From Gemmatimonadota bacterium (lineage in GTDB: Bacteria > Gemmatimonadota > Gemmatimonadetes > Palauibacterales > Palauibacteraceae), in assembly GCA_039588275.1 (NCBI GenBank), contig JBDHAC010000018.1, positions 1-64,000 on the forward strand: a stretch of 64,000 bases of DNA, given 5' to 3'. Shown here one piece after another: positions 25,282 to 42,650 of this stretch. Under the pieces are notes generated by a model. That model saw only the letters and a list, made by a program, of their open reading frames with translations, did not search any database and was not told the origin of the DNA. Position numbers and translations under genes: made by a program. Position 1 is the stretch's first letter, and every line of letters begins with the position of its first letter.

Positions 25282-27450
25282 GTGCAGGAAACGACACAAC
25301 CAAGCAATCAGCCACAAGTATCGTTATACCGGGAAGCGAGCCCGGGTGCGCGAGTTACGGCATACGCATCTCTGGCCGCCGCCGTCCTCATCCTGTTCGT
25401 CGTTGCCAACCTCGTATCGTGGACGAGCACGCCCCTGCTCCACAGTCTCGTGGAAGTGACGGCCACGGTTCTGGCGGGAATCGTCGGCGTGCTGGCGCTC
25501 GTCCGGTACTACTCGCACAAAAACCCGACGCTGCTTCTCGTCGGCGCCGGATTCGTCGGCACCGCGTTTCTGAATGCCACCCATCTGGTCGTGACTGCCG
25601 AAGGTTTTCCGTGGCGCCTGGCGACGGAGCCGGAGGCGTTGGGGCATTGGACGTGGCTCGCCTCGCAGCTGTTCCTGTCCCTCATCCTCGTCTGGAGCTG
25701 GTGGGAGTGGCGGCGTGAAGTACGGATCGGCCGCGAGCAGGCCCGCTTGCCGGAGCTACGTGTCTACCTTGAGGTGGGGGCGCTCGTCCTGCTCTCCGTC
25801 GCGTTCCTGGGATTCATCGGACTTCCACCCGAGATCCGGCCCGGCGCTCGCATTCCGCGGCCGGCCGAGCTGATCCCTGGCGCGCTCTTCGGGATCACGC
25901 TCGTAGGCTATCTCGTCAAGGGGAACTGGAGGATTCGCCCGTTCGAGGTGTGGCTCGTCGCCGCCCTGGTACTCGGTTTCGCGAGCCAGACCCTGTTCAT
26001 GCCGCTCAGCTCCGAGTCGTTGGATGCGTTGAGCACCGGCGGGCATCTGCTGAGGGTCACCAGCTACGCGTTCATCCTCATCGGGCTCCTGTCCAGCATG
26101 TACGGGCTCTATCGCCAGGTGGAGCGCAGCACGTACGTGATCCGGCACGCGAACGAGGCGCTGCGCGGAGAGATCGAGGAACGCAAGCTCGCCGAGGACG
26201 CCGCGCGCGAAAGCGAGGAGAAGTATCGCACGATCCTAGAGACGATCCAGGAGGGGTACTACGAGGTCGACCTCGCCGGGAACCTCACGTTCGCCAACGA
26301 CTCTCTCGCGCGCCTGCTCGGATACGAACTTCCCGAGCTGGCGCGCATGAACTACCGGCGCTACACCGATGAACCGTACTCGCGCGCCGTCTTCGAGACT
26401 TTCAACCACGTGTACAGGACCGGCCAGCTGGTCGAGTCGTTCGGGTGGGAGATCCTCCGCAAGGACGGAGAGCGGCGCTATGCCGAAGCCTCGGCGGGTC
26501 CGGTCGAGAACGCGGACGGAGAGATCGTCGGGTTCCGTGGCATCGTTCGCGATGTCACACCCCGGCGCCGCGCCGAGGAGAAGCTCAAGGAGCGCTCACA
26601 CGAGCTCGCGCGCACGAACGAGGAGCTCCGGCAGTTCGCGTCCGTGGCTTCGCACGACCTCCAGGAGCCGCTGCGCATGGTCTCAGGGTACACACAGCTC
26701 CTCGCACGCCGGTACGAGGGACGGCTGGACGAAGAGGCCGACCAGTTCATTCGGTATGCGGTGGATGGCGTCACGCGTATGCAGAACCTCATCCGGGATC
26801 TGTTGAGCTACTCGCGAATCCAGACGCATGGGCGGGATTTCGAGCCCGTGAACGCGCTCGAGTCGCTCGAGTGGGCGCTCACGAATCTGGAGTGCGGGGT
26901 CCAGGAGGCCGAAGCGATCGTGACGCACGATGAGTTGCCGGTCGTGCAGGCGGATCCCGTGCAACTGGGGCAGCTCTTCCAGAACCTGGTCGCGAACTCG
27001 GTGAAGTTCCGGAGCGAGGACCGGCTGCAGATCCACATCGGCGCGCAACGGGGTGCCGACGAGTGGATGTTCAGCGTACGCGACAACGGAATCGGGCTGG
27101 ATCCGCAGTACGGCTCCAGGATCTTCGACATCTTTCAGCGTCTACACCCTCACGACGAGTACGAGGGAACGGGGATCGGGTTGGCCATCTGCAAGCGGAT
27201 CGTGGAACGGCACTCAGGGAGGATCTGGGTCGAGTCAATGCCCGGACACGGCGCTACGTTCTACTTCACGATCGCGGACGTGCCTGGCGCGACCCTCGGT
27301 GAGGCTGACCCCGAGGCCGAGATCGACATGGAGTTCGTCGACGCGAAGCCCTCGGAATCGGACCTCGCACAGCCAGGGCGCCTGGGGGCAGCCTCGGATC
27401 CTGAGCCCGAGCCGCAGGTCGTCGGCTCGGAAGGGAATGCGGAGTCATGA
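25282..27450 (+). CDS. Membrane sensor histidine kinase (MASE3-like TM domain, PAS, HisKA, HATPase)
   Basis: About 7 TM helices; PAS (SEEKYRTILE..VRDVT); ASHDLQEPLR, QLFQNLVANSVKF, DNGIG, GTGIGLAIC. Confidence 0.92.
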   Translation: MQETTQPSNQPQVSLYREASPGARVTAYASLAAAVLILFVVANLVSWTSTPLLHSLVEVTATVLAGIVGVLALVRYYSHKNPTLLLVGAGFVGTAFLNATHLVVTAEGFPWRLATEPEALGHWTWLASQLFLSLILVWSWWEWRREVRIGREQARLPELRVYLEVGALVLLSVAFLGFIGLPPEIRPGARIPRPAELIPGALFGITLVGYLVKGNWRIRPFEVWLVAALVLGFASQTLFMPLSSESLDALSTGGHLLRVTSYAFILIGLLSSMYGLYRQVERSTYVIRHANEALRGEIEERKLAEDAARESEEKYRTILETIQEGYYEVDLAGNLTFANDSLARLLGYELPELARMNYRRYTDEPYSRAVFETFNHVYRTGQLVESFGWEILRKDGERRYAEASAGPVENADGEIVGFRGIVRDVTPRRRAEEKLKERSHELARTNEELRQFASVASHDLQEPLRMVSGYTQLLARRYEGRLDEEADQFIRYAVDGVTRMQNLIRDLLSYSRIQTHGRDFEPVNALESLEWALTNLECGVQEAEAIVTHDELPVVQADPVQLGQLFQNLVANSVKFRSEDRLQIHIGAQRGADEWMFSVRDNGIGLDPQYGSRIFDIFQRLHPHDEYEGTGIGLAICKRIVERHSGRIWVESMPGHGATFYFTIADVPGATLGEADPEAEIDMEFVDAKPSESDLAQPGRLGAASDPEPEPQVVGSEGNAES

Positions 27451-27878
27451 GCCTTCCCGCCGCGGAGGTTCTCCTCGTCGAGGATAACCCGGGCGACGTC
27501 CTGCTCGTCCGGGAGGCGCTCGAGATGTCCGAGCTGTCGACGACCCTCCATGTGTGCCGCGATGGCGTGGAGGCGATGGAGTTCCTCCGGGAGAGGGACA
27601 CCGAGAACGGATCTCCACTGCCCGACCTCGTGCTGCTCGACCTGAATATGCCGAGGATGTCCGGACACGAAGTGCTCGCCGAGATGAAGGCCGATGTGGC
27701 TCTGCGCAGGATCCCCGTGGTCGTACTCTCGACCTCCACCGCACGCTCGGATATACGCACGACGTATCAGCTCCACGCCAACTGCTACATCACGAAGCCA
27801 CTCGATCTCGAGCTGTTCATGAAGGTGGTGCGCAACATCGCGAGCTTCTGGCTCGGGGTCGTACAACTCCCCTGCTGA
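27447..27878 (+). CDS. Single-domain response regulator, Rcp1-like
   Basis: LLVEDNPGD, PDLVLLDLNMP, LSTS, ANCYITKP, FWL; ATGA overlap with the kinase. Confidence 0.93.
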   Translation: MSLPAAEVLLVEDNPGDVLLVREALEMSELSTTLHVCRDGVEAMEFLRERDTENGSPLPDLVLLDLNMPRMSGHEVLAEMKADVALRRIPVVVLSTSTARSDIRTTYQLHANCYITKPLDLELFMKVVRNIASFWLGVVQLPC

Positions 27879-28016
27879 CCCCGGCTTCGGGCGCCAGCTT
27901 CCGGGTAGTGACGGGGCCGCGGCGCGCGAACATCCCTCCAAACCGTTGCAGTTTGCCAGATTGCGTACGCGGCTCGGGAGTCCAGCTGACTTCTTCTGCC
28001 TCTACGTCGCCCCCTA

Positions 28017-28033
28017 TATGAAATGTTTTCATA
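28017..28033. promoter_or_regulatory. Perfect AT-rich palindrome upstream of a sigma-54 promoter
   Basis: TATGAAA-TGT-TTTCATA. Confidence 0.55.
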
Positions 28034-28075
28034 ACGTTAGGGAGTCTCGCGCGGCCTCTCGGACTCCGGCACCCG

Positions 28076-28091
28076 TGGCCTCTCACTTGCC
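28076..28091 (+). promoter_or_regulatory. sigma-54 -24/-12 promoter of the glycosyltransferase operon
   Basis: TGGCCTCTCACTTGCC with GG(28077-78)-N10-GC(28089-90), about 60 bp before TTG 28149 (AAGGAG RBS). Confidence 0.7.
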
Positions 28092-28148
28092 GATCTCCCT
28101 GAGGATTAGAGCCCCCCTACCGAGCCGGTCGGTCCGGAAGGAGCCAGG

Positions 28149-29367
28149 TTGAGCGAACTCAGCGCGAACGTGGTCGCCCAGGAGGGCGGCGACGTGTCAC
28201 GTCCAGCGCGTGTGAACGGGAGTGGGTCCGGTCGAAGGATCGGACCGCAGGGTCGCATCCTCCTTCTGGATACCGACGTCCCGTTCCGGCAGACCCTCGT
28301 CGCCGCTCTGGAGCGGTTCGGGATAGAGGTTTCGTGGCGAGCTCGCGTCCTGGGGCTCTTCGACGCGCTCGCCGAAGCCGACCCGATCTCGCTCGTGATG
28401 AGCGCCGATCTTCCGGGGAGCGATCCGCTCGAGCTGATTCGCTCCGTGCGTCGGAGTCGCTGGGCCGAACTCCCGATCCTCATCGTCGCGAACGAGCCCG
28501 ACCGGTCTTTCGAGCTGCGCGCCTACGTCGATGGCGCCGACACGGTGGTCGCCCGCGCGGGGGCGGCGGGCGAGCTGGCCGCGCATATCATGGGGCATGC
28601 CGCGCGTCGCATCCGGAGGCGCCGGGATGCCGCGCGCGATCTTGCCGATGTGGCGCTCGCCATCAGCGAACGGGACGCGCCGACCGCCCAACCCGACGCT
28701 GCGGTCGACGAGCGGTACGCCGCTCTCGGCGAACCGGGGGGCGCCGCCCTCGGCGAACGGGGGGGTGCCGCTCCGGGCACGCCCGTTCCACCCGCGTTCA
28801 GCGCGCCCGACCCGGCTGGCGCAGTCGTCGGGCACGCGCAGGCCGCTCCACCCAACGGGCACGTGCACGACCCTCGAGGATCGGCGGCTTCCGGGTACGG
28901 TTCCGTGGAGCACCAGGCGGCTGACTCCACGCCCTTGGCCCAGCTGTTACACGACCCCACCGCAGCTTCACCCTTCGGGACGACCGCCATGAGGTCAGGC
29001 GGTGTAGCGGGGCCGATCGACGGCACGCCGGCTTCGCACGCTGCCCCGGGCACCCCAGCGGCCCCGCTGCTGCACCCGCAGGCTGCCGTTCCCGACGTGA
29101 TCCTCGTCGATGACGACCCTTCGCTGCTGGAGATGCTTCGGTACGCGCTCACCAACCGGGGGTACAAGACGCCTGCATGAGCTCGGCGGCTGTCGCCCGG
29201 GCGACTACCAGGTGATCCTGTGCACCGTTCACAGTAGCGAGGCAACCCAGGTGCTCGGGATCCAGTCCGGTGCGGTGGATTACATCGTCAAGCCGTTCCG
29301 GATGCCCATCGTGCTCGCCAAGGTCGAGCGACTCCTGGGATCTCCCCGGCTTCCGGCCGGGCCGTAG
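28149..29367 (+). pseudogene. Double-receiver protein (pseudo-REC, Pro/Ala linker, REC) disrupted near 29171-29172
   Basis: The frame from 28149 reads VILVDDDPSLLEMLRYALTNRGYKT then stops at 29180; another frame continues LHEL..VILCTVHSSE..GAVDYIVKPF to 29367; the segment carrying the phosphoacceptor Asp is absent. Confidence 0.75.
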
Positions 29368-29384
29368 TGCAACACGATCCGTAG

Positions 29385-30494
29385 ATGAGCGCCGGTCTCC
29401 TGGCGGTCGTCGCGCTCGCGCAATCGGTGCTCGTGCTCGGCGTCCTGCTCGTCCTGGGCGCATCGCATTGGCTCGGCAGCCGACGCGACCGCCGGCACGC
29501 GGCCGAGAAGGCGCGCGTCGACGAGATTGCCCGGCGTCTCGCCACTCGCGATCTCCTCCCCGAGGAAGCGATCGACGCGCTCGATGCGCTCGGCTTCGAT
29601 AGCGTCAGCCAGTTCCTCAAGCGGTACTCCGCTCACCGGAGAGGAGCCGATGGCGAGCGCATGGTGTCCGTCCTGCGCAGGACCCGCTGGCACCGACGGA
29701 TACAGACGGAGACCGAGTCTCGCTTCTGGTGGCGCCGGCTCCAGGCGGCCCGGGCGCTCTCGAACCTGGCGGCGGCCGAGGACCTGGCCACTGTGCACCG
29801 CCTGTTGATCGATCCGGTCCCGGCTGTGCGGTTGGCGGCAGCCGACACGCTCGCACGGCTGCCTTCCCCCGCTCTGGCGGCCGCGATCCTGGATCGCGCC
29901 ACCGCCGGCCACACGGTCGTTCGGAATCACCTGCTCGAGATCCTGGCATCGAGCCGCGCCGTCGTACTGCCGGTGATGGTAACCAGGCTCGGGCAATCCC
30001 TCCCGCCCTGGCGGCTGCGCGCCCTGGTCGACCTCGCCGGACTGTTGGCTGACCCCAGGTTGTTGCCCCACGTCATCGCACATTCGGACTCGGGCCACCT
30101 CGAGGTTCGCATCGCGGCCGCGACGTCGCTACGGAGCTACCCGCACCCTCAGGCGGCAGCGGCGCTCCGCCGATTGCTACGCGACCCCGCGTGGCAGGTC
30201 CGGGCCCGCGCCGCCGCGTCACTCGGCGCGATCGAGGCGATCGAGGCCGTGGACGACCTTTGCGCGACGCTGTGCGACCGCAACTGGTGGGTGCGACTTC
30301 GCTCCGCGATCGCGCTTCGGCTGGTGGGGCCGTCCGGGGTTCACAGGTTGCGCGCCATGACCCCCGAGCTGGACCGCTACGGCTACGACATGGCGTGCTA
30401 CGTCCTCGAGTTGGACGACGCGGCCATGGCGGAGTACGTAGGCGGGGCTACGATCGACTACTCCGGCGCGCCGACGGGCGCAGTGGCGGCGTAG
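29385..30494 (+). CDS. Membrane-anchored HEAT-repeat protein
   Basis: N-terminal TM; WWRRLQAARAL, DPVPAVRLAAA, EVRIAAATSL, DPAWQVRARAAASLG, DRNWWVRLRSAIAL. Confidence 0.88.
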   Translation: MSAGLLAVVALAQSVLVLGVLLVLGASHWLGSRRDRRHAAEKARVDEIARRLATRDLLPEEAIDALDALGFDSVSQFLKRYSAHRRGADGERMVSVLRRTRWHRRIQTETESRFWWRRLQAARALSNLAAAEDLATVHRLLIDPVPAVRLAAADTLARLPSPALAAAILDRATAGHTVVRNHLLEILASSRAVVLPVMVTRLGQSLPPWRLRALVDLAGLLADPRLLPHVIAHSDSGHLEVRIAAATSLRSYPHPQAAAALRRLLRDPAWQVRARAAASLGAIEAIEAVDDLCATLCDRNWWVRLRSAIALRLVGPSGVHRLRAMTPELDRYGYDMACYVLELDDAAMAEYVGGATIDYSGAPTGAVAA

Positions 30495-30498
30495 CGCC

Positions 30499-31926
30499 AT
30501 GCCTCCGGTCTCCGTGATCGCGGCTGTCGTGCGCGGCATCGACGCGACCGTCATCTGGTACTTCTTCGCGCTCAACACCTGCTACGCGATCCTCATCCTG
30601 CTCACGATCCCGGAGCTCTGGAAGCAGTGGAAGGAAGCCACGATCGAGGATCTGGAGCGGTACATGGGCTCGGACGCGCTCCCCCCGATCAGCGTCCTCA
30701 TGCCCGCGTACAACATGGAGCCCAACATCGTCGAGAGCGTGCGGGCGCAGCTCACGCTCCGCTACCCGCACCACGAAGTCATCGTCATCAACGACGGTTC
30801 GGTGGACGCGACGCTCGAGCGCTTGCGGACCGAGTTCGGGCTGTACGAGGTGCCCCCCGCCATCCCACGCCGGATCCAGACCGAGCAGGTTCGAGGCTAT
30901 TACCGCTCGAGGGTCGCCTCGGGTCTCCTCGTCATCGACAAGGAGAACGGCGGTAAGGCGGATGCCCTCAACGCCGGTCTGTGCGCGGCCCGCTATCCGC
31001 TCGTAGTGGCGGCCGACGCGGACACGATGATCGCGGAGGACGCGTTACTCCGGCTCGCGCGCCCCTTCCTGCTCGGCGATCCTGTCGTCGCCGCGGGCGG
31101 GACGATTCGCGTCGCGAACGGGTGCGTGATCGAGCATGCGCGCGTCGTCGAGCCACGCTTCCCCCGTCGTTTCCTCGCCGCCGTCCAGATCCCCGAGTAC
31201 CTGCGCGCGTTTCTGTTTGGACGCATCGGGTGGAACCGATTGGGGGGCAACCTGATCGTCTCGGGAGCCTTCGGGCTCTTCCGGCGTGACCACCTGCTCG
31301 ACATCGGTGGGTATCACACCGGCAGCGTAGTGGAGGACCTGGATCTGGTCGTGCGCCTGCACGAGCATCTGAGGGAAAAGGGCATCGAGTATTCGATCCC
31401 GCTTCTCCCGGATCCGATCGCGTGGACCGAAGTGCCACCCGATCTCAAGACGCTCGGGCGCCAACGCGAGCGATGGCACCGCGGTCTGATCGCGACGATG
31501 GTGCAGCACCGGCGCGTCCTGCTGAACCGCAGATACGGCCCGCTGGGCTTCGTGCACATGCCCTTCTTCATCTTCGGCGAGATGGTGGCTCCGCTCGTCG
31601 AGCTCATCGGGTACATCGTCACGGTGATTGGCCTGCTGCTTGGCCTTCTCTCATGGACGCACGTGTGGCTCTTCCTCGCGGTCGCACTCGGGTACGGGGT
31701 GCTGCTGAGCCTGTGGGCGATCGTGTTCGAGCAGGCGACGTTTAGGATGTACCGGCGGCGGGGCGATTTCCTTCGGCTCGTGGTCTGCGCGTTCCTCGAG
31801 CCGTTCGGTTATCGGCAGCTCACCGTGCTGTGGAGGCTCAAGAGCTTCTGGACCGCGGCCCGCGGCAACGTCCAGTGGGGCGAGATGAAGCGGTACGGGT
31901 TCGAGACCGCGGAGAGCTCCACATGA
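30499..31926 (+). CDS. Processive family-2 glycosyltransferase (PgaC/IcaA/cellulose-synthase-like)
   Basis: PAYN, NDGS, KENGGKADALNAG, DAD, VED, QRERW; one N-terminal and about 3 C-terminal TM helices. Confidence 0.93.
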   Translation: MPPVSVIAAVVRGIDATVIWYFFALNTCYAILILLTIPELWKQWKEATIEDLERYMGSDALPPISVLMPAYNMEPNIVESVRAQLTLRYPHHEVIVINDGSVDATLERLRTEFGLYEVPPAIPRRIQTEQVRGYYRSRVASGLLVIDKENGGKADALNAGLCAARYPLVVAADADTMIAEDALLRLARPFLLGDPVVAAGGTIRVANGCVIEHARVVEPRFPRRFLAAVQIPEYLRAFLFGRIGWNRLGGNLIVSGAFGLFRRDHLLDIGGYHTGSVVEDLDLVVRLHEHLREKGIEYSIPLLPDPIAWTEVPPDLKTLGRQRERWHRGLIATMVQHRRVLLNRRYGPLGFVHMPFFIFGEMVAPLVELIGYIVTVIGLLLGLLSWTHVWLFLAVALGYGVLLSLWAIVFEQATFRMYRRRGDFLRLVVCAFLEPFGYRQLTVLWRLKSFWTAARGNVQWGEMKRYGFETAESST

Positions 31927-34718
31927 GCCTCACCGGGAGAGGATGTCGGGCCGGCTCGATCGGCCCGATCGTACTCTGGCTCTGCACTTCCCCGTTCCCC
32001 TCGCCGAGTGCCGCCCAGGATGCTTGCCGAAGCGACGGCGCAGAGGTGATCGACCGCGGCTGGGACCTGTACCGCGCGGGACGGATCGACGACGCCACTT
32101 CGCGCTTCGAGGATGCGTTGGCATGTGATCCGGCGTCGATCGGCGCACGGGTCGGACTCGCGTATGCCGCGCTGCGCAATCAACGGGAAGAAGTGGCGCG
32201 GCAACTGTTCGAGGATGTGCTCGCCGATCACCCGGACGTCGTCGACGCATACATCGGTCTCGGCTGGCTGGCGTGGCGCGGGGGTCACGCGCAGGCGGCA
32301 TTCGAGGCCGCGACGGCCGCCCTCCGACTGGATCCGACCAGCACCGATGCGCGCGCGCTGCTGGAGCAAGTCCAGGAGGTGTCACCCCAGACCCCGCCAC
32401 CCGTTGAACGGCCGGAGTGGGTCCGGCCCGACGCGGTCGAATACCCAGCCCGGACATCGGGCGACCGCTTCGAGATTCGAACGCCTGCGGGCTGGAGGCC
32501 GTTCTACATGAACGGTGTCAATCTGGGCGCGGCGCTCCCCGGGAAGCACCCCAGCCAGTTCCCCGATTCGCTGGTGTACGCGGAATGGATTGCCGAGATG
32601 GCGGCCATGGGCGCCAACACGGTGCGCCTGTATACGATCCACCCGCCCGGGTTCTATCAGGCGCTGTACCAGCACAACCTGGTCCATCCCGAGCAGGCCG
32701 TGTGGCTCGTCCACGGCGTGTGGACCGAGCTGCCGCCCAGACACAACTACCTGAACCCGGTCTGGGAGGGCGAGTTCTTCGCGGAGATGCACCGGGTCGT
32801 CGACGTGCTGCATGGGCGCACCGACCTGGCTCACCGGTCTGGGCACGCGTCGGGCACCTACACCGCCGACGTCTCCAATTGGACGCTCGCCTACATCATC
32901 GGGCGCGAGTGGGAGCCGTTCTCGGTCGAGACGTTCAACAGGCGGCACCCCGGATACACGGAGTGGCGGGGCCGCTACCTGCGGGTTCGGGCCGGTACGC
33001 CGATGGACGCGTGGCTCGCGAAGGCGTGCGAGGAGATCATCGCGTACGAGATGGACGCGTATTCGGAGCAGCGTCCCGTCGCGTACACGAATTGGCCCAC
33101 CCTCGACCCCCTCCGACACCCGACGGAGACTACCGTCCCCGAGGAGATGCGGATCCGGACGGCGCTCGGGGAGCGTGTGGAGGTCAGACCGCGCGAGTAC
33201 GACAACGACCTCGTCTCGGTGTCGGCCTTCCTGGTGGAAGCTACGGAGGAGTTCCCGGCCGGCCATTTCGCGTCCTACCACGCCTATCCGTACTACCCGG
33301 ACTTCATGGTGCTCGACCCCGAGTACGGAGAATCGACGTCGCCCTTTGGCCCGTCCAACTACTACGGCTACCTGCGGGATCTGAAGCGACTGCACCCCGG
33401 GATGCCGGTCGTGATCGCCGAGTACGGGGTGCCCGCCAGCGTCGGAATCGCGCACCTGCAGCCCCAGGGTTGGCACCACGGCGGCCACTCGGAGGCGGCA
33501 ATGGCGAAGATCGATGAACGCCTCACGCGTGAGATCGCGGCCGCCGGAATGGCCGGCGGGATCCTGTTCGCTTGGATCGACGAGTGGTTCAAGAAGAACT
33601 GGATCGTGATCGACTTCGAGATTCCGCCCGATCGCAACCGGTTGTGGCTCAATCGCCTCGACGCCGAGCAGCAATACGGGATCTTCGCGATGGAGCCCGG
33701 CTCGGGCCCGCAGGGGGACGACACTCGCGAGCGATTGGCTGCCTGGGAGGCCGTCCCGCCCACGCACGTCGGGGCCGGCATGAGTCTCAGGGCGGTCGCG
33801 GATGAGGGGTATCTGTGGCTGCTGTACGAGGCGCGCGGCGCCACATCCCCATCGCCTGAGCTGATGGTCGGTTTCGATATTGTGGATCCGTCGGCGGGAG
33901 ACTTCCGCTGGCCGGACCGAGTCGGCCCACGGCTCCCGATGGGTCTCGAGTTCGTGTTGCGGGTCACTGACGACGAGGCGCGTCTGCTGGCGGACCCGCC
34001 ATACAACCCGTTCAGGCTTCAGAGCGTGCGGAACGCGATCGACTCGCCCACCCGGACTCCACCGCTGCGGCCGGCCGATACGAATGGTGGATCCGGTTGG
34101 AGCTCGCCGCCCCGAGGTCTGTTCTCGGGGCGGCTCGAGCAGCGCTACGCGCACCCGTACGTCCCCGAAGCGAACTCGGACGGACGGTACGATTCGCTGC
34201 GCGTGATCACCAACCGTGCGCGCTTCACCCGCGCTTCAGATGAGTATCTGGCATTGGGCTACGACCGAGGCATCCTGCCCGCCGGCCCGCTCCCCGATGG
34301 GCTGTGGGAGCGGCTGCCGGCGACGAACGCCGTCGAGATCAGGATTCCGTGGACGCTGCTCAACATCACCGATCCGAGTCAGCGGCGAGTCCTGCTTGAC
34401 ACCTATCCGGCTCACCGGAGTCACCGGCCCCCGCCGGGTGGTTACGCGACCCTCGAAGTGGCCGACATCGGTGTGGTCGTGATCACGGCGGATACCGAGG
34501 GAAGCTGGCGGACCCTGCCCGCGGCAGGTGCGGCGGACCCATCCGAAGGAGTGGCACGATTCTCGTGGCCCACGTGGGAGCAGCCGCGGTGGCGGGCCCG
34601 GCGGCGACCGGTCTTCGAGGCCATGCGCCGGACGTTCGAGGATCTGAGGCCCACCGTGGTGCTGACCCCATCCGTCGGCCGGCGGGTGGGAGATGGTGCG
34701 GGAGGAGGAGAGCGATGA
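31923..34718 (+). CDS. Exported TPR plus glycoside hydrolase (clan GH-A-like TIM barrel) with C-terminal beta domain
   Basis: ATGA overlap; signal-like N-terminus; TPRs; GVNLG, GANTVRLYT, IIGREWEP, SYHAYPYYPDF, VIAEYG, FAWIDEWFK. Confidence 0.8.
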   Translation: MSLTGRGCRAGSIGPIVLWLCTSPFPSPSAAQDACRSDGAEVIDRGWDLYRAGRIDDATSRFEDALACDPASIGARVGLAYAALRNQREEVARQLFEDVLADHPDVVDAYIGLGWLAWRGGHAQAAFEAATAALRLDPTSTDARALLEQVQEVSPQTPPPVERPEWVRPDAVEYPARTSGDRFEIRTPAGWRPFYMNGVNLGAALPGKHPSQFPDSLVYAEWIAEMAAMGANTVRLYTIHPPGFYQALYQHNLVHPEQAVWLVHGVWTELPPRHNYLNPVWEGEFFAEMHRVVDVLHGRTDLAHRSGHASGTYTADVSNWTLAYIIGREWEPFSVETFNRRHPGYTEWRGRYLRVRAGTPMDAWLAKACEEIIAYEMDAYSEQRPVAYTNWPTLDPLRHPTETTVPEEMRIRTALGERVEVRPREYDNDLVSVSAFLVEATEEFPAGHFASYHAYPYYPDFMVLDPEYGESTSPFGPSNYYGYLRDLKRLHPGMPVVIAEYGVPASVGIAHLQPQGWHHGGHSEAAMAKIDERLTREIAAAGMAGGILFAWIDEWFKKNWIVIDFEIPPDRNRLWLNRLDAEQQYGIFAMEPGSGPQGDDTRERLAAWEAVPPTHVGAGMSLRAVADEGYLWLLYEARGATSPSPELMVGFDIVDPSAGDFRWPDRVGPRLPMGLEFVLRVTDDEARLLADPPYNPFRLQSVRNAIDSPTRTPPLRPADTNGGSGWSSPPRGLFSGRLEQRYAHPYVPEANSDGRYDSLRVITNRARFTRASDEYLALGYDRGILPAGPLPDGLWERLPATNAVEIRIPWTLLNITDPSQRRVLLDTYPAHRSHRPPPGGYATLEVADIGVVVITADTEGSWRTLPAAGAADPSEGVARFSWPTWEQPRWRARRRPVFEAMRRTFEDLRPTVVLTPSVGRRVGDGAGGGER

Positions 34719-36288
34719 GGAGGGAGAGCGGGATCTCACGATCCGGTGCCCTCGTGCGGCGCGCCGGCGGTAGGCTCCCACTGCTGCTGGTCGTAATGCT
34801 CGGCGGCCCGGCCCGAGCCAGTGCACAGACGGCCGGCAGCGACGAGGCGCGGGCGGACTCCGCGTGGAACGAAGGCGAATTCCAGCTCGCCGAAGCGCTT
34901 TACGAACAGCGTCTGGCGAAGGAACCCACCGACTCACGCGCCCTGCACAGACTGGCTCTGCTTCACGCCTGGGGCGAGCGGTACCAGGAGAGCATCGCCC
35001 TCTTCGACCGCCTGCTGACCGCGATCCCGAGCAACTTCGACGCCGCCCTCGATAGGGCCCGCGTGCTATCGTGGCAGTCGCAGCTCGAAGACTCGCGCGC
35101 CGCGTACACGGCGCTCACCGAGCGTTATCCCGAGAGGCGCGAAGCCTGGCTCGGTCTGGCTCGGGTGCTGTCCTGGGAGGGGCGGCTGGACTCGGCCGTG
35201 GTCATCTACGATCAGCTGTTGGAGATAGAACCGCGCGATCCCGAGGCCCTGGCCGGCCTGGCGACGATGGCCGCCTGGGACGGTCGAATTCCGGAGGCCG
35301 AGATCCGATGGCGAGAGGCGCTCGAGCTGCACCCCGACAACGTGATGCTGCTGACCGGGCTCGCCCGAACGTTGCGTTGGGCCGGACGACCTGCGGCCGC
35401 TCTCCCGGTGCTGGAGCACGCTCTACAACTCTCCCCGGATCACGCGGAGGCCATGCAGGAATTCAAGCTGGCGCGCATGTCCATAGCGCCGCGTGTGGGT
35501 CCGTCGGCCATCTACGAGAGTGATTCGGACGGGAATCACATCGCCACCTTCTGGTACGACCAGACCATGTGGCCCACGGATCGGGTGGCCCTCAACCTGA
35601 GCGGGTACGCACGGACTGCCGGGCTCGGTGACTCGGGTCTTCGCGGTGAGGCGTACAGCGCACTGCTGGAGACGCGAACGCGCGTCGGAATCGGGTGGGA
35701 GCTGGACGCCGGCGCCGGAGTTTCCGGCTCGAATCTGTCGGATCGGGGCGCGACGCTTCGACTGTCCGCGAGAGCCGCCACTCCGGGTCACCACCGGTTT
35801 CAGGGCTCCGCGCGCTACTCCCGAGACGCTTTGTATGCGACGGTGCTGTTGATGCAGAGCGGGGTGCGCACCGATGACCTGAACCTGGGTGTGCGTGGCA
35901 CCCTCGCGCCCGGGTGGCGTGCGGAGGCCTCTGCCAGTGTGGCGCGGTTCACGGGCAGCGAGACCAATCGGCGGCTGGCCGGGTTTCTGAACGTCCAGCG
36001 CCGGCTCTCTCCGACCTGGAAGGCCGGCGTCACGGTGAGGGCTTTCGGGTTCGATGAGGACCTGAACGAGGGCTACTTCGACCCGTCGCTGTACGCGCTC
36101 GCCGAGCTACAGGCGGGCTGGGCCCCCACCTTCGGACGCTGGCACGCCGGTGTGGATGTCGCACCCGGCGTCCAGAAGGTGACTCGAGGCACGAGCACGG
36201 TGAGCGGCACGGTACGCCGAACTTCTCGACCGGTGACGCGGACTATCGCTACGTCCACGTCGCGTTATCGTTCGGCTGGACGTTCTAG
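34715..36288 (+). pseudogene. TPR plus outer-membrane beta-barrel export protein (PgaA/YaiO-like architecture), frameshifted near 36217
   Basis: Signal peptide, multiple TPRs, beta strands; after VSGTVR the ORF runs out of frame to 36322, while the -1 frame encodes NFSTGDADYRYVHVALSFGWTF-stop(36288), a canonical terminal beta-signal. Confidence 0.75.
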
Positions 36289-36322
36289 GCAGGCCGCTGG
36301 AGCTCTTCAGCGGCCTGTTTAG
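36285..36322. terminator. Hairpin between convergent genes (bidirectional terminator or REP-like)
   Basis: CTAGGCAGGCCGCTGGA-GCTC-TTCAGCGGCCTGTTTAG spans both stop codons. Confidence 0.7.
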
Positions 36323-38145
36323 GGGCGGATCGTAGCCCGGCGCTCGAACCATAGGTGACGGACGCGCCCGCTGCTCGACCGGAAGCCGGTGATCTGCCTC
36401 TGATCGTCACGCTCGAATCGCACGCTCCCCAGCCACCAGACGCTCGACTCGAACCGGTCCAGCGCCACCGGGCGGAGCGGGATGTCGCCGTGCCGCCAGT
36501 GGCGTAGCACGAGCCCCTTCCCTTCCACCAGCAGCCAGTAGGTGGCCCCGAGCTCCTCGCTCACGTACCCGCCCGCGTACGCAGCTAGGTCGAGAGGCTC
36601 GGGCGGCGACTCGATCCGCTGCGACACGATCGGCTGTCCATCGCCGATGCGAACCAGCATCCGCTGCGGTTCGGACTCGCGCGGCTCGAACCAGACCCGT
36701 ATCGGAGCGTCCACGCCCAGCATGCGGAATCGATCCTCACCCAGAGGCGCCAACTCGCTCTCGTTCGAGGCGCCTCGGTTGTAGTACAGGCGGCCGCGTC
36801 TCTGGTAGATGCGCCGGACGTAGTCTCGCGTGGGGTTCCAATACAGGCCGCTCACCCGATCCAGATCTCCGCTCGACACCTTCACGGCGGGCTTCGACGC
36901 CTCACCGCCCGCCGGGCCGGAGCCCCTGACTTCGCGCGTCGCGACCGGCCCGCCCGGCGTGGGATCGGCCGCGGGCAGGAACACCTGGGCGACGCGTTGC
37001 GCGAGCGACGATGGGGAGGTGCGCGCCTCGTTGGCGAGCACGACGACGGTGAATTTCTCCTCCGGGACCATCAGGATGTGGCTGCGGAAGCCCGCATCTC
37101 CGCCGCTGTGCTCCACGTGCGGCAGGCCTCCGCGCTCCACCAGCGCAAGACCGAACGCGTACTCCAGCTCCTCTCCGTTCGTCAGGACCCCGCGCTCGTA
37201 CATCTGCCGGATGACCGCCTCGCCTCCCACGGACGGGTCGAAGAAGTTCCGTGCCCAGCGCGTCAGATCTTCGGCGGTGGTGAACAGGCTCGTGGCCCCC
37301 ACGTTCGCGTAGTTGAGCACCGCGCGCTGGTACGCACCGGACGCGGTCCGCGAGTAGGAGTAGGCGCGGTCCTTGACGACCGTCCGATGATCGTCGTGGA
37401 AATGGGTGTCCGTCATCTCGAGGGGCGCGAACACGTGCTCGCGCATCCAATCCGCGAACGGTACTCCCGTCACCGCACGCACGATCTCGGCGAGCAGTGT
37501 GTATCCCGTGTTGCTGTACACGTGCTCGGAGCCGGGGGCGAAGTTCAGGGCCTTCTGGCGTCTCACGAGGCGCAGGATGTCGGCCTGCGTGATCACGTCG
37601 TCCAGTCTCCATCCCGCCATCGTGAGGAGCGTCCACTGGTCACGTAGCCCCGACGTATGGTGGACGAGGTCGCGAATCGTGATCCGCTCCCCGAAGCTCG
37701 GGAGCTCGGGCAGGTAGCGCCGTACGTCATCGCTCAGCGAGAGCTTCCCCTGCTCGGCCAGCATGGCGATCGCGAACGCCGTGAACTGCTTCGAAACGGA
37801 CGCCACGTGGAACACGGTTCGCGGCGTGATCGGGACATCGTACTCGAGTTGCGCCATCCCGTATCCGCGGGAGTACACCAACTCGCCATCCTCCAGGATG
37901 GCAACGGCGACGCCCGGTCGGCCCGACCGATCGAAGGGTCGGAAGATCGCCTCGACACGGGACAGGCGGGTCGCGAGGTCCGGCACCGAGTCGCGCACCC
38001 CCCGAGCGGCGTGATGCCAGAACTGCGCCGCGGCCGGGGCCGCGTGCGCGAAGAGACCGGCGAGCCCGAGCAGAGCGAGGGAAGGCCGGCGCCAGGTCCG
38101 GCTGGTTCGCACCCCTCCGGCTTGATTCCTAGATTCGAACCGCAC
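36319..38145 (-). CDS. Exported serine hydrolase (beta-lactamase/AmpC-related) with C-terminal extensions
   Basis: ASVSKQF (SxxK), LVHHTSG, YSNTGY, HSGG; signal peptide. Confidence 0.9.
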   Translation of the reverse strand: MRFESRNQAGGVRTSRTWRRPSLALLGLAGLFAHAAPAAAQFWHHAARGVRDSVPDLATRLSRVEAIFRPFDRSGRPGVAVAILEDGELVYSRGYGMAQLEYDVPITPRTVFHVASVSKQFTAFAIAMLAEQGKLSLSDDVRRYLPELPSFGERITIRDLVHHTSGLRDQWTLLTMAGWRLDDVITQADILRLVRRQKALNFAPGSEHVYSNTGYTLLAEIVRAVTGVPFADWMREHVFAPLEMTDTHFHDDHRTVVKDRAYSYSRTASGAYQRAVLNYANVGATSLFTTAEDLTRWARNFFDPSVGGEAVIRQMYERGVLTNGEELEYAFGLALVERGGLPHVEHSGGDAGFRSHILMVPEEKFTVVVLANEARTSPSSLAQRVAQVFLPAADPTPGGPVATREVRGSGPAGGEASKPAVKVSSGDLDRVSGLYWNPTRDYVRRIYQRRGRLYYNRGASNESELAPLGEDRFRMLGVDAPIRVWFEPRESEPQRMLVRIGDGQPIVSQRIESPPEPLDLAAYAGGYVSEELGATYWLLVEGKGLVLRHWRHGDIPLRPVALDRFESSVWWLGSVRFERDDQRQITGFRSSSGRVRHLWFERRATIRP

Positions 38146-38204
38146 GGCGGCATTCTATGGGACGAGCGGGGTGTCCAGCCAGTCCTCACGCCCACGGAGC
38201 GCGA

Positions 38205-41200
38205 ATGGCAGTAGTTGACTTCCACCCGGCGGTAGCTCGTTGGTTCGCCCAGCGGTTCGAGGCAGCCACCGAGCCTCAGGTCCACGGGTGGAGATCGATC
38301 CGGGCCGGCCGCGACACGCTCATTTCGGCACCGACCGGCTCCGGAAAGACGCTGGCCGCCTTCCTCTCCGCGCTCGACGCCCTGTTGCGCGAAGGGCTCG
38401 AGTGCGGCGGCGCGCTGCCCGACGAGACGCGGGTCCTGTACGTGTCTCCCCTCAAGGCCCTGAGCGCAGACATCCACCGAAACTTGGCCGAGCCCCGGCG
38501 CGAGATCCGCCGCGTCGCGAAGGAGATGGACCTCCCCTCCCCGCGTATTACGGCCGCGGTGCGAAGCGGGGACACGTCGCAGGCGGAGCGACAGGCGATC
38601 GTGCGCACGCCCCCCCACATCCTCGTCACGACGCCGGAGTCCCTCTTCCTGCTCCTCACGGCGGAGCGCAGTCGCGAGATCCTGCGGACGGTCCGGACCG
38701 TGATCGTCGACGAGATTCACGCGATCATCGAATCCCGGCGTGGATCTCACCTCGCGCTGAGTCTCGAGCGTCTGCAGCACGTCGCGGAGGTACCTCTCCA
38801 GCGCATCGGCCTGTCGGCCACCCAGAAGCCTATCGAGGAGGTGGCGCGCTTCCTGGTGGGCCGCGCCCGCCTGGCGCCGGATGGCCGATCCGCGTGCGAC
38901 ATCGTCGACAGCGGGCACCTCCGAGAGCTCGATCTGGCGCTGGAGGTGCCGGAATCGCCGTTGGAAGCCGTGATGTCGGCGGAAACGTGGGACGAGATCT
39001 TCGACAGGCTTGCCCGCCTCATCGGCGAGCACCGTACGACCCTGGTGTTCGTGAACACGCGGAGGATGGCGGAGCGCGTCGCACGCCAGCTGACCCGGCG
39101 GTTGAGCGAGGCCGACGTCGCCGCCCACCATGGCAGTCTTTCGCGCGAGGCCCGCCTGGATGCCGAGCAGCGGCTGAAGGGTGGCCGACTGCGCGCCCTG
39201 GTGGCGACCGCATCTCTGGAGCTGGGAATCGATATCGGGCACGTCGACCTCGTGTGTCAGCTCGGCTCGCCCAACCGCATCTCGGCCTTCCTCCAGCGCG
39301 TAGGCCGTTCGGGGCACACGGTGAGCGGCACCCCCAAGGGGAGGCTGTTCCCGCTCAGTCGCGATGATCTGGTGGAGTGCAGCGCTTTGCTGCGAGCCTG
39401 CCGGCAGGGAGAACTGGATCGCCTTGTCGTGCGGGAGCGCCCGCTCGACATCCTCGCCCAGCAGGTCATCGCGGAAGCGGCATGCGAGGATTGGGCCGAG
39501 GACGGGCTCTACGACCTCTTCCGGCGTGCCTACCCCTACCGCGAGCTCTCACGGGCCGAGTTCGACGAGGTCATCCATATGGTCGCGCACGGGTTTCGAA
39601 CCAGACGCGGCCGTCGCGGGGCGTTCGTACACCACGATGGGGTCAACGGGCGGATCCGTGGCAGGAAGGGGGCACGTCTCGCGGCTCTGACGGCAGGTGG
39701 CGCAATCCCCGATGTCGCGGACTTCAGGGTCGTCCTGGAGCCCGAAGGCACGTTCGTCGGGACGATCAACGAAGACTTCGCGATCGAGAGCGTACCCGGG
39801 GACATCTTCCAGCTGGGCAACACCTCGTGGCAGATCCTGCGGATCGAGCGAAGCACGGTGCGGGTCGCGGACGCTCGCGGGCAGCCCCCCAACCTCCCCT
39901 TCTGGCTGGGAGAGGCTCCGGCACGCACAGATGAGCTCTCGGTCGCGGTGTCCAAGCTCCGGCGTGAGATCGATGCGCATCTTGCCGACGAGGAGGGCGA
40001 GGGCGGGCGGCGGCGCGCGCGGGCGTGGGTCACCGAGGAGATCGGGCTTTCGGAGCCGGCCGCGTACCAGCTCGTCAGGCACCTCTCGGATGCGAGGCAT
40101 CTGCTCGGTGTTCTCCCGACGCGCGACACGCTCGTTCTCGAGCGGTTCTTCGACGAGGCCGGGGGCATGCAGCTCATCCTCCACTCGCCGCTCGGGAGCC
40201 GGATCAACAAGGCGTGGGGGTTGGCGCTGCGGAAGCGATTCTGCCGGAAGTTCAACTTCGAGCTGCAGGCCGCCGCGACCGAGGATGGAGTGCTGCTCTC
40301 CCTCGGGCCCCAGCATTCGTTTCCGCTCGAGGAGGTGTTCCGATACCTCCACCCCGAGACCGTTCGGGATGTGCTGGTGCAGGCGATGCTCGACGCGCCC
40401 ATGTTTCAGACCCGCTGGCGGTGGGCGGCCAGCCTGTCGCTCGCGGTGCTTCGCTGGCGCGGCGGGAAGCGCACGCCCCCCCAGATCCAGCGTATGGAAG
40501 CCGAGGATCTCCTCGCGGCTACGTTCCCCGACGCGGCGGCGTGCTTCGAGAACATCGAGGGGGAGCGAGAGGTCCCCGACCATCCGCTGGTTCGTCAGGC
40601 GATCGATGACTGCCTGCACGAAGCCATGGACCTCGAGGGACTCGTCGGGATCCTGGACCGGATTCGCACGGGTGACGTCGGCCTCGTTGCACGGGATACG
40701 CCCGAGCCCTCGACGCTGAGCCACGAGCTGCTGACCGCGAGGCCGTACGCGTTCCTGGACGACGCCCCGTTGGAGGAGCGCCGGGCCGCCGCCGTGTACG
40801 CCCGCCGCGCCCTCGATCCCACGACCGCGAACGAACTGGGTGCGCTCGACCAGGCCGCGATCGATCGTGTGCGTGCCGAGGCATGGCCCGATCCGCGCTC
40901 TCCGGACGAGCTGCACGACGCGCTCATGACGTGTGGTTTCCTCACGGCCAGCGAGGGCGCACGGGCCGAGGTGGCGGCCGGCGACGGGGGCTGGGCGGAG
41001 CACTTCGGCCGGCTGGCCGAGCGGGGCCGCGCCACGCGCGCACGGCGGGACCCCGACGGACCGAAGCTCTGGGTGGCGACCGAGCGGCTCCCGGAGCTCG
41101 AGGCGGTCCACCCGGACATTTCAACCGAGCCGGCCGTCGTTCCACCAAACCGCTTCCGCGAACGGCCACCGGACCGCAGCGCGGCGGTGCGGGAGCTCCT

Positions 41201-42650
41201 GCGCGGGCGACTCGAGATCCTCGGACCGACGACCTGCGCCGCCCTGGCCCGATCGATCGGGGTGCCCGAAAGGGACGCTGACGCCGCGCTGCTCGCCCTC
41301 GAGGCAGAGGGCGCGGTGCTGCGCGGGGCGTTCACGGCGGGGAGTGCCGGTCGCAGGAACGAGTGGTGCGAGCGGCGGATGCTCGCCCGGATCCACCGGT
41401 ATACCATCCAGCGCTTGCGAGCCGAGATCGAGCCGGTGTCGGCCGCCGACTTCATGCGATTCCTGTTCGAGTGGCAGCACGTCGCTCCGGGTACGGCCGT
41501 GGCCGGCCCGGAAGGCCTCGCGGCGGTCTTGCGACAGCTCGATGGATACGAGCTGTCCGCCGCCGCGTGGGAGCCCGATGTGTTGGCCGCCCGGTGCGAG
41601 GACTACGAGCCGGAGCTCCTCGACGCCCTGTGCCTCACGGGGCGCGCCATGTGGGGTCGCTTGTCCCCGCCGGCGGGATCGAACGGGGGTCGCGGGTCGG
41701 GCCCGATTCGCAGCTCACCCATCGCCTTGTTTCGGCGGGCGAGCGCGACGGCGTGGTTCTCGTTGGCGCGATTACCCAACGCCGAAGCGCTTTCCTCGTA
41801 TGGGCAACAGGTCCTGGAGGCGCTCGAGCGGCGTGGGGCGTCCTTCTTCCACGAGATCGTGGACGACGTCGGGTTGATGCCTACCCGGGTCGAGCAAGCG
41901 CTCGGCGAGCTCGCGGCGGTCGGGCTGGTCACCTCGGATGGGTTCACCGGCCTGCGGGCACTCCTCACACCCTCGGATCGCCGCCGACCGCTGGGGGGTG
42001 CCAGGGCCCGTAGACGGAAGCGCATCGCTCCGTACGGCATCGAGACGGCCGGCCGTTGGTCGTCCTTGCGTCGCGCGCACGAACCGACCCCGGAATCGCC
42101 GGGCGCGGGCCCGAGGAGCTCCGAGACGGTTCCACGACGAGCGCCCGCCCGGGCCGCCGATGCCCCCGAGGTCGAGAGGTACGCGCTCGCGCTGCTGCAC
42201 CGCTATGGAGTCGTCTTCCGCCGTCTGCTCGCGCGCGAGACGAACTCGCCGCCGTGGCGAGACCTGGTGCTCCTGTATCGCCGGCTCGAGGCGCGCGGGG
42301 ACATCCGGGGCGGGCGCTTCGTGTCGGGCTTCTCGGGTGAGCAGTTCGCGCTCCCCGAGGCGGTGCCCCGCCTGCGCGCGACGCGCCGGACCGAGGCGAC
42401 GGGGCGGCTTCAGAGCCTATCCGCTGCGGACCCTTTGAATCTGACGGGGATCATCACCCCGGGCGACCGTATCACCGCGGTCGCGAGCAACCGCGTCGTG
42501 TACCGCGACGGAGTCCCCGTCGCCGCACACGAGGGGGGTCGGATCCGCATGCTCGTGCACGAGCGGGCCCCGAGCGCCCGAGACGTGGAACGGGCGCTCG
42601 TCCGCAAGATGCCCCCGTCGCTGAGGTGGTATCTGTGGCGGGCCGGTTGA
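38205..42650 (+). CDS. lhr: Lhr-family SF2 helicase, long form
   Basis: APTGSGKT, YVSPLKAL, TTPES, DEIH, GLSAT, AHHGSLS, SLELGIDIG, QRVGR; C-terminal LEARGDIRGGRFV..GEQFA, SAADPLNL. Confidence 0.95.
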   Translation: MAVVDFHPAVARWFAQRFEAATEPQVHGWRSIRAGRDTLISAPTGSGKTLAAFLSALDALLREGLECGGALPDETRVLYVSPLKALSADIHRNLAEPRREIRRVAKEMDLPSPRITAAVRSGDTSQAERQAIVRTPPHILVTTPESLFLLLTAERSREILRTVRTVIVDEIHAIIESRRGSHLALSLERLQHVAEVPLQRIGLSATQKPIEEVARFLVGRARLAPDGRSACDIVDSGHLRELDLALEVPESPLEAVMSAETWDEIFDRLARLIGEHRTTLVFVNTRRMAERVARQLTRRLSEADVAAHHGSLSREARLDAEQRLKGGRLRALVATASLELGIDIGHVDLVCQLGSPNRISAFLQRVGRSGHTVSGTPKGRLFPLSRDDLVECSALLRACRQGELDRLVVRERPLDILAQQVIAEAACEDWAEDGLYDLFRRAYPYRELSRAEFDEVIHMVAHGFRTRRGRRGAFVHHDGVNGRIRGRKGARLAALTAGGAIPDVADFRVVLEPEGTFVGTINEDFAIESVPGDIFQLGNTSWQILRIERSTVRVADARGQPPNLPFWLGEAPARTDELSVAVSKLRREIDAHLADEEGEGGRRRARAWVTEEIGLSEPAAYQLVRHLSDARHLLGVLPTRDTLVLERFFDEAGGMQLILHSPLGSRINKAWGLALRKRFCRKFNFELQAAATEDGVLLSLGPQHSFPLEEVFRYLHPETVRDVLVQAMLDAPMFQTRWRWAASLSLAVLRWRGGKRTPPQIQRMEAEDLLAATFPDAAACFENIEGEREVPDHPLVRQAIDDCLHEAMDLEGLVGILDRIRTGDVGLVARDTPEPSTLSHELLTARPYAFLDDAPLEERRAAAVYARRALDPTTANELGALDQAAIDRVRAEAWPDPRSPDELHDALMTCGFLTASEGARAEVAAGDGGWAEHFGRLAERGRATRARRDPDGPKLWVATERLPELEAVHPDISTEPAVVPPNRFRERPPDRSAAVRELLRGRLEILGPTTCAALARSIGVPERDADAALLALEAEGAVLRGAFTAGSAGRRNEWCERRMLARIHRYTIQRLRAEIEPVSAADFMRFLFEWQHVAPGTAVAGPEGLAAVLRQLDGYELSAAAWEPDVLAARCEDYEPELLDALCLTGRAMWGRLSPPAGSNGGRGSGPIRSSPIALFRRASATAWFSLARLPNAEALSSYGQQVLEALERRGASFFHEIVDDVGLMPTRVEQALGELAAVGLVTSDGFTGLRALLTPSDRRRPLGGARARRRKRIAPYGIETAGRWSSLRRAHEPTPESPGAGPRSSETVPRRAPARAADAPEVERYALALLHRYGVVFRRLLARETNSPPWRDLVLLYRRLEARGDIRGGRFVSGFSGEQFALPEAVPRLRATRRTEATGRLQSLSAADPLNLTGIITPGDRITAVASNRVVYRDGVPVAAHEGGRIRMLVHERAPSARDVERALVRKMPPSLRWYLWRAG

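Follow-up and report, generated by a model that had tools for sequence, protein, structure and literature searches.

A stretch of 64,000 nucleotides (the window; contig C18 of a Gemmatimonadota genome, G000, of 4.1 Mb and 86% completeness) carries a five-gene operon encoding a double-receiver regulator (REC-REC), a HEAT-repeat protein with a transmembrane (TM) anchor, a GT2 synthase, a tetratricopeptide (TPR) hydrolase and a TPR outer-membrane barrel. With moderate confidence, this locus is read as one copy of a widespread receiver-HEAT-GT2 operon for a beta-linked, probably N-acetylglucosamine (GlcNAc)-containing surface polymer, in which the HEAT protein would serve as the partner subunit of the GT2 and a phosphorylated receiver would switch the pair on. 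Well-studied synthase-dependent biofilm polymers are switched by cyclic di-GMP (c-di-GMP); if the proposed reading is true, a phospho-receiver acting via a HEAT protein would represent a second control logic for polymer synthases.

About 2200 stored stretches were estimated to match the GT2 patterns, and 80 loci were examined from Gemmatimonadota, Actinomycetota, Pseudomonadota, Bacteroidota, Bacillota, Bdellovibrionota, Marinimicrobia and archaea. By a profile built from these same loci, the HEAT gene stands immediately upstream of the GT2 gene in 75 of the 80, or 75 of the 78 with upstream DNA, and in the other three the HEAT gene lies at another place in the locus; the 80 include two duplicates of relatives' loci, which were counted in this adjacency and dropped from the GGDEF, motif-alignment and receiver best-match counts below. 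Of the loci, 39 have 6 kb or more on either flank; among them, HEAT was adjacent in 37, a receiver was upstream in 32 and a kinase or Hpt was present in 27, and the hydrolase was found in 13 and the barrel in 24, with both in 9 and neither in 11. Receiver-HEAT-GT2 is the core of the operon, and hydrolase and barrel are optional. The order REC-HEAT-GT2-hydrolase-porin, for which an earlier note on this DNA had suggested a survey, is thus conserved across phyla in its first three members and only partly in its last two.

The plasmid records, which serve as a check independent of the profile, agree with this picture. A HEAT protein is annotated beside the GT2 in nine of ten family records, the tenth matching the HEAT profile, and in none of three out-of-family GT2 records. 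REC-HEAT-GT2 is carried by Haloarcula, Salinirubellus and Halosolutus plasmids from cultured strains, REC-TPR/YaiO-HEAT-GT2 by those of Mesorhizobium, Erythrobacter and Devosia, and hydrolase-HEAT-GT2 by Emticicia, Deinococcus and Planococcus records; the family core also occurs on a Bacteroides record. The family is common, the HEAT profile matching 74 of 201 genomes of the phylum, and it is present in easily grown strains. A second copy in G000 (C6, ~109340-113350, locus L105; counterpart L106 in the same-genus genome G001) reads REC-REC-REC-HEAT-GT2, with no hydrolase or barrel nearby. On the Erythrobacter plasmid (L149:4355-8248), REC-TPR-HEAT-GT2 lies within a flagellar cluster, and a PilZ gene is found ~5 kb away.

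The GT2 motifs D99, D173-x-D175, E279-D280 and Q322-x-x-R325-W326 are invariant in 86/86 aligned homologues, confirming the full D, DxD, ED and QxxRW set previously read from the window. A family-specific insert of ~29 residues (~108-136) is not present in PgaC. The GT2 model has a predicted local distance difference test score (pLDDT) of 93, and its top structural match was PcManGT (Z 31.7, root-mean-square deviation (rmsd) 2.9, 340 residues), with hyaluronan synthase at Z 28.5 (rmsd 3.3, 399 residues) and BcsA at Z 25.4 (rmsd 3.4, 377 residues); the Foldseek list was filled by hyaluronan, chitin and cellulose synthases.

The HEAT protein, 369 residues long with one N-terminal TM helix, was co-folded with the GT2 from alignments of 86 rows per protein, alongside three controls. 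The complex scored 0.70, against 0.00 for the best control, and runs agreed in at least 79% of contacts, with a partner pLDDT of at least 81. Of 157 solved complexes, 116 reach the mark, as do 2 of 215 mismatched pairs, rates that are only approximate with custom alignments. In the model, the HEAT TM helix packs against GT2 residues 401-412, and the HEAT repeats contact residues 41-62, 116-123, 136-142 and 190-195, the insert included; the lowest-error contacts are those between TM segments. The HEAT-GT2 interaction proposed in the earlier note thus passes the mark, which supports the HEAT protein as a predicted GT2 partner subunit. A sequence search of solved structures yielded no similar complex, and a protein-atlas search with the HEAT protein returned generic HEAT clusters only. 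In one subfamily (L155-L160), the HEAT protein reaches ~990-1250 residues, is flanked by several receiver genes and lies directly upstream of the GT2. A HEAT-GT2 gene fusion was considered and rejected, the long HEAT frames in six of ten loci being extended arrays beside a separate GT2.

To judge from its sequences, the receiver beside HEAT behaves as a dedicated, phosphorylatable subfamily across distant phyla. In a set of 232 receiver domains, the best match below 55% identity of a HEAT-adjacent receiver was a second HEAT-adjacent receiver for 42 of 59; the best matches of the other 17 were all among eight terminal receivers from operons of this type, and once these had been relabelled post hoc the count became 67/67, and 57/67 for the relabelled set at below 45% identity. 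The phospho-accepting Asp is kept in 62/67 of these receivers, Thr/Ser in 65/67 and Lys in 65/67. Their N-terminal fusions vary, from none to Hpt, further receivers or GGDEF, and haloarchaeal copies have a single-domain receiver only. The C6 copy of G000 carries Glu at the phospho-Asp position of its terminal receiver, which could be a constitutive mimic, and keeps the sigma-54-like site.

These results suggest a pathway of five steps. A sigma-54-type promoter would start transcription in the G000 lineage, after which the terminal receiver would gain its phosphate from the upstream MASE3-PAS kinase or from some other relay. The receiver may then dock on the cytoplasmic HEAT solenoid, a step suggested by co-conservation only, and the HEAT protein is predicted to hold the GT2 through its TM helix and the family-specific insert of the GT2. 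The phosphorylated terminal receiver would likely switch on the HEAT-GT2 pair, with the GT2 predicted to polymerise the glycan and thread it through the inner membrane. Finally, folds and gene fusions suggest that the TPR-GH-A enzyme would trim or clear periplasmic polymer and that the TPR-barrel would export it.

Hydrolase, barrel and the probable polymer

The catalytic part of the hydrolase has no Pfam family, and its core was modelled at a pLDDT of 94 as a clan GH-A barrel whose best fold match is GH157 (Z 34.2, rmsd 2.2 Å, 312 residues, 15% identity), followed by GH2 at Z 28. A sequence search of the PDB gave TPR matches only, among the matches listed. E329 and E500, both Glu in 124 of 127 hydrolase sequences, are by fold the probable catalytic glutamates. 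At E ≤0.001, 1302 representatives match the hydrolase core, and among the best 150 of these, one is fused to the family GT2, five to a barrel and 16 to a CE4-type domain; Pfam confirms a deacetylase in 6 of the 30 representatives scanned. No PilZ, deacetylase, PgaD or BcsB domain was found by Pfam in the five operon genes, and the earlier statement that no deacetylase is present therefore holds at the locus; it fails for the family, in which CE4 is fused to hydrolase relatives.

The hydrolase had also been described as exported. In the window copy the signal peptide is weak, no stretch lying above the hydropathy threshold, and it is clearer in relatives, whose signal peptides suggest that the enzyme is exported. 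The barrel protein contains both TPR and barrel parts, with weak BCSC_C similarity and no YaiO match.

For the identity of the polymer, the CE4 fusions, the position of PgaC as the nearest named family, and the glmS and GlmU-like nucleotidyltransferase genes that flank the operon in two haloarchaea (Halosolutus and L074) favour GlcNAc, and the fold resemblance to GH157 points to a glucan or to a beta-1,3 linkage. Taken together, this sequence evidence makes a beta-linked, GlcNAc-containing glycan the probable product. An LTA-synthase-family gene, a possible polymer-decorating enzyme, adjoins the operon in Emticicia (L146:9149-11116) and Salinibacter (L072:9634-12195).

Proposed receiver input and its alternatives

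Several observations weigh against a receiver-switched synthase of GlcNAc polymer. Pfam GGDEF domains occur in 19 of 67 upstream regulator proteins from 64 loci, counting the final 620 residues of each; one complete, undamaged operon of the phylum (L161) includes GGDEF; and G000 itself encodes seven GGDEF domains. No receiver stands beside HEAT in 7 of the 39 loci, nor in the Deinococcus, Bacteroides and Planococcus records, and 11 of the 39 lack both a hydrolase and a barrel nearby. The mannosyltransferase PcManGT outranks hyaluronan synthase as a structural match of the GT2, the hydrolase fold is closest to a GH157 with bound beta-1,3-glucan, no indication of GlcNAc, and the G000 copy is broken in two places as assembled. 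Moreover, many loci come from Gemmatimonadota kin, and the counts are therefore not independent.

The GGDEF domains bear on the proposal of the earlier note that the pathway is controlled by phosphorylation rather than c-di-GMP. Among 39 regulators chosen to include all those with GGDEF, a profile found 22 to be GGDEF-like, of which eight are canonical (GG[DE]EF), two near-canonical and 12 degenerate. Most regulators thus have a degenerate GGDEF or none. The HEAT-GT2 pair might accordingly be activated by c-di-GMP in the manner of PgaC-PgaD, through an interface lacking a motif, with the receivers controlling a linked cyclase that was lost in the G000 lineage. PgaC-PgaD binds c-di-GMP without a recognisable motif, and the absence of PilZ therefore proves little; PgaC/IcaA is also the nearest named family, and the GGDEF frequency (19/64 upstream regulators) and the seven GGDEF domains of G000 fit such an arrangement. 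Against it, the terminal receiver keeps its canonical form where GGDEF has degenerated or gone, which favours direct receiver input, and the operon is headed by single-domain receivers in haloarchaea and several other phyla; haloarchaea are not known to use c-di-GMP. In the G000 lineage, a low-complexity linker occupies the GGDEF position, and neither Pfam nor the GGDEF profile found a recognisable c-di-GMP receptor (PilZ, MshEN or degenerate GGDEF) in the operon. Activation by c-di-GMP is thus considered unlikely, and the GGDEF may be read as an optional cyclase undergoing decay, in contrast to the terminal receiver, which is retained. The dedicated receiver subfamily speaks for the phosphorylation half of the earlier proposal, and the half that sets c-di-GMP aside is weakened by the GGDEF domains in 19 of 64 upstream regulators, eight of them canonical.

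It is a little less plausible still that the HEAT protein is a constitutive structural partner, such as a PgaD- or BcsB-like stabiliser or scaffold, and that the receiver acts elsewhere, for instance as a phosphate sink or on operon transcription. The loci and the three cultured-strain records without an adjacent receiver agree with this explanation, as do the TM-TM contacts, which carry the lowest predicted error; yet the receiver subfamily is tied to the operon across distant phyla, the C-terminal half of the receiver is the most constrained (dN/dS, the ratio of nonsynonymous to synonymous substitution rates, 0.005), and a large cytoplasmic solenoid would be more than a stabiliser needs. That the GT2 makes a lipid-linked or short membrane glycan rather than a secreted polymer, with hydrolase and barrel as optional add-ons, is very improbable, since the best VIA match, PcManGT, and the absence of both genes near the C6 copy and in the 11 loci are opposed by the invariant QxxRW and ED motifs, by the hyaluronan, chitin and cellulose synthases that fill the Foldseek list and align over up to 399 residues, and by the GT2-hydrolase and hydrolase-barrel fusions.

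Layout, probable promoter and deletions of the window copy

The five operon genes lie on the same strand (Table 1), and the intergenic gaps of 17 and 4 bp and the two ATGA overlaps reported earlier were confirmed from the sequence. The gene set itself, REC-REC, HEAT, GT2, TPR-hydrolase and TPR-porin, is real, although two deletions had been overlooked that leave the regulator and the barrel broken as assembled.

Table 1. Features of the operon and its upstream region in the window
Feature	Position	Strand	Basis
MASE3-PAS histidine kinase	25282..27450	+	Pfam MASE3, PAS, HisKA, HATPase_c
Single-domain receiver overlapping kinase gene	27447..27878	+	Pfam Response_reg
Upstream element with short inverted repeat	27940..27954	+	near-identical in G001; similar word upstream of L023 operon
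AT-rich palindrome, between upstream element and promoter	28018..28032	.	AT-rich block aligned in G001, G004, L023
Sigma-54-type -24/-12 site, one mismatch to consensus	28076..28090	+	positional conservation
REC-REC: pseudo-receiver, low-complexity linker, terminal receiver; broken	28149..29367	+	Pfam Response_reg
TM-anchored HEAT-repeat protein	29385..30494	+	Pfam HEAT_2; TM helix 5-23
Processive-type GT2 synthase	30499..31926	+	Pfam GT2; motifs; structure model
TPR plus clan GH-A glycoside hydrolase	31923..34718	+	Pfam TPR; fold of catalytic part
Signal peptide, TPR array, outer-membrane beta-barrel; frameshifted end	34715..36288	+	Pfam; weak BCSC_C similarity

Upstream of the operon, the MASE3-PAS kinase gene, a candidate phospho-donor, also precedes the operon in G001, G004, G015 (where it is split) and L023. 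The single-domain receiver is syntenic in G001, G004 and G015; in L023, the interval from kinase to operon showed no such gene. The upstream element with the inverted repeat may be an activator site, and the AT-rich palindrome a bending or regulator site.

A sigma-54 promoter had been proposed for the operon. Taken alone, the -24/-12 pattern is at chance level (3 matches vs 7.4 expected), as is a looser pattern genome-wide (76 vs 78 expected). GGC-N7-TTGC nevertheless occupies the same position in the window, G001, G004, L023 and two paralogous operons, that is, in six of seven close loci. The site is missing in G015, the remaining close locus, and none of 20 more distant loci showed it, against a background of 3% per 350 bp. 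The rpoN gene is encoded in G000, nine of 14 matches to the G[AS]FTGA motif stand in an activator-like context, and a sigma-70 promoter scan gave 0 sites. Because the close loci are kin, this conservation gives support at the level of the lineage only, in which a sigma-54-type promoter likely starts transcription.

Relative to G001, 116 bp are missing at 29171/29172, which removes the strand of the second receiver (REC2) bearing the phospho-Asp and brings a stop at 29180. The first receiver (REC1) carries Ser at the phospho-Asp position, and the regulator as assembled is therefore without a phosphorylatable Asp. In the barrel gene, 79 bp are missing at 36217/36218 relative to G001 and G002; the C-terminal strand, which closes with GWTF (stop 36288), thereby falls out of frame, and the open frame continues to 36322. 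The barrel is intact in G001, G002, G004 and G015. With the phospho-Asp and the last barrel strands gone, the copy would not be inducible and its export would be defective, provided that the deletions are not assembly errors, and a copy broken as assembled is a poor model of the system.

All operon genes are under purifying selection (dN/dS 0.005-0.26 vs G001), and the most constrained part of the locus is the out-of-frame 3' half of REC2, at 98% identity to G001. Because of this selection, strongest in the out-of-frame half, the breaks are either very recent or assembly errors. Whether they represent a real, recent loss of function, so that the strain no longer makes the polymer, is a separate question from that of the control mechanism, and a real loss is a serious possibility, falling just short of an even chance. 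It is favoured by the clustering of two deletions in 8.1 kb, compared with five further ones (60-230 bp) across ~304 kb of alignment (Poisson P ~0.008, a post hoc value with an under-counted background, the scan itself having missed the REC2 deletion), and by a different deletion of ~70 bp, which puts the corresponding terminal receiver of a further genome out of frame (L023:8588-8857). It is opposed by the similar deletions that unrelated genes carry in both G000 and G001 and by the lack of relaxed selection in any operon gene or in the out-of-frame remnant. Neither deletion junction was spanned by any contig piece among the public matches listed; one sequencing run shared 30% of the sequence words, and no RNA data set was among the matches listed. 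The repeated loss of the terminal receiver may reflect selection or an assembly hot spot.

Clean, scattered deletions of 60-230 bp were seen in both genomes at about one per 40-50 kb (six in G000, the barrel one included, and eight in G001, over 312 kb aligned), the genes struck including agmatinase-like and amidohydrolase-like frames, and such deletions can mimic pseudogenes. Beyond the operon, the window contains ordinary neighbours, namely a convergent gene for a beta-lactamase-fold protein (36319-38145) and, downstream of it, one for a large Lhr-type helicase of 1497 residues (38157-42650), and a PAS-GGDEF-EAL protein (61316-63760) is encoded on the same contig ~25 kb from the operon.

Comparison with known systems

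The operon has the layout of synthase-dependent secretion, comprising a GT2 with processive motifs and TM segments, a putative periplasmic hydrolase and a TPR-barrel, and the earlier assignment to this layout is supported by motifs, folds and domains. The features examined also place it outside Pga, Bcs and Nfr, in line with the view that it is not an already characterised pathway. With Pga/Ica it shares a membrane GT2 with D, DxD, ED and QxxRW, for which TIGR03937 is the nearest named model, a membrane partner subunit, a periplasmic hydrolase and a TPR-barrel exporter. However, the operon GT2 reaches 115.9 bits on TIGR03937 against a cut-off of 422.3 and is 29% identical to PgaC of E. coli K-12, and the barrel reaches 50.1 bits on TIGR03939 against a cut-off of 366.65, over the TPR part only. 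The partner is a 369-residue TM-HEAT protein in place of the 137-residue PgaD, the hydrolase is unrelated to PgaB by sequence, and the operon has a linked receiver; PgaD and PgaB gave no Pfam match and no BLAST match for the operon genes compared.

With Bcs, the operon shares the GT2 fold (Z 25 to BcsA), the combination of hydrolase and TPR-barrel and the weak BCSC_C similarity of the barrel. It differs in that the GT2 scores 37 bits on TIGR03030 against 699 and lacks PilZ, no match to BcsB or BcsZ was found among the operon genes, and a clan GH-A TIM barrel stands in place of BcsZ. NfrA/NfrB and YaiO/YaiP/YaiS likewise combine a GT2 with a TPR-barrel, and a Pfam YaiO barrel is present at many of the homologous loci, but NfrB and YaiP have no HEAT neighbour and the operon barrel is not YaiO. 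On the GT2 family profile, PgaC scored 125 bits, YaiP 59, BcsA 37 and NfrB 15, compared with 472-636 for members. A quick tree of 47 rows, of the kind suggested in the earlier note, split PgaC, YaiP, BcsA and six other GT2s from the family with a Shimodaira-Hasegawa-like approximate likelihood ratio (SH-aLRT) support of 93 and no bootstrap, leaving NfrB unplaced on a very long branch. For the hydrolase, GH157 (PDB 9g4n and 9g5g, laminari-oligosaccharide complexes) is the best fold match of the core, but at 15% identity, and with extra C-terminal beta domains and N-terminal TPR in the operon enzyme, its substrate is not transferable.

A possible further relative is the NELoc-2 locus of Clostridium perfringens, in which the available passages of PMC2879425 list CP4_0466 (685 residues), a HEAT protein (377 residues) and a GT2 (466 residues) among CP4_0466-0468, as annotation only; a polysaccharide deacetylase gene is reported for NELoc-2 in the accessible text of PMC11677781. 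The order hypothetical-HEAT-GT2 after VTC and CotH genes resembles that of the Planococcus plasmid (689, 355 and 470 residues), whose trio matches the hydrolase, HEAT and GT2 family profiles. On that plasmid (L148:840-8275), VTC-domain, DUF4956 and CotH kinase genes are followed by hydrolase-HEAT-GT2, with no receiver. In the parts of the NELoc-2 source at hand, no receiver or barrel is listed, and the link consists of gene order and size alone. For the Xanthomonas xag genes, no tie to a HEAT gene appears in the accessible passages of PMC3609779, PMC3542200, PMC3826837, PMC4643136, PMC3528676, PMC3633832, PMC13392355, PMC9040811 and PMC4624772; in iron oxidisers, xagBCD-like genes come after a bcsB-like gene, according to the portion of the source available. 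No functional study of a receiver-HEAT-GT2 system was found in the open-licence literature.

More tentatively, the family could constitute an undescribed cross-domain class of synthases, extending from haloarchaea to Gemmatimonadota and probably to NELoc-2, in which a phospho-receiver would activate the synthase directly via HEAT with no second messenger, the product would be an unreported GlcNAc beta-glycan and the hydrolase would found a new GH-A family. If true, this would explain polymer regulation in archaea, which are not known to use c-di-GMP, and would offer a candidate function for NELoc-2, which has long been linked to necrotic-enteritis strains from poultry. Set beside the Pga, Bcs and Nfr/Yai systems, the operon is a variant of synthase-dependent secretion defined by its HEAT subunit and dedicated receiver.

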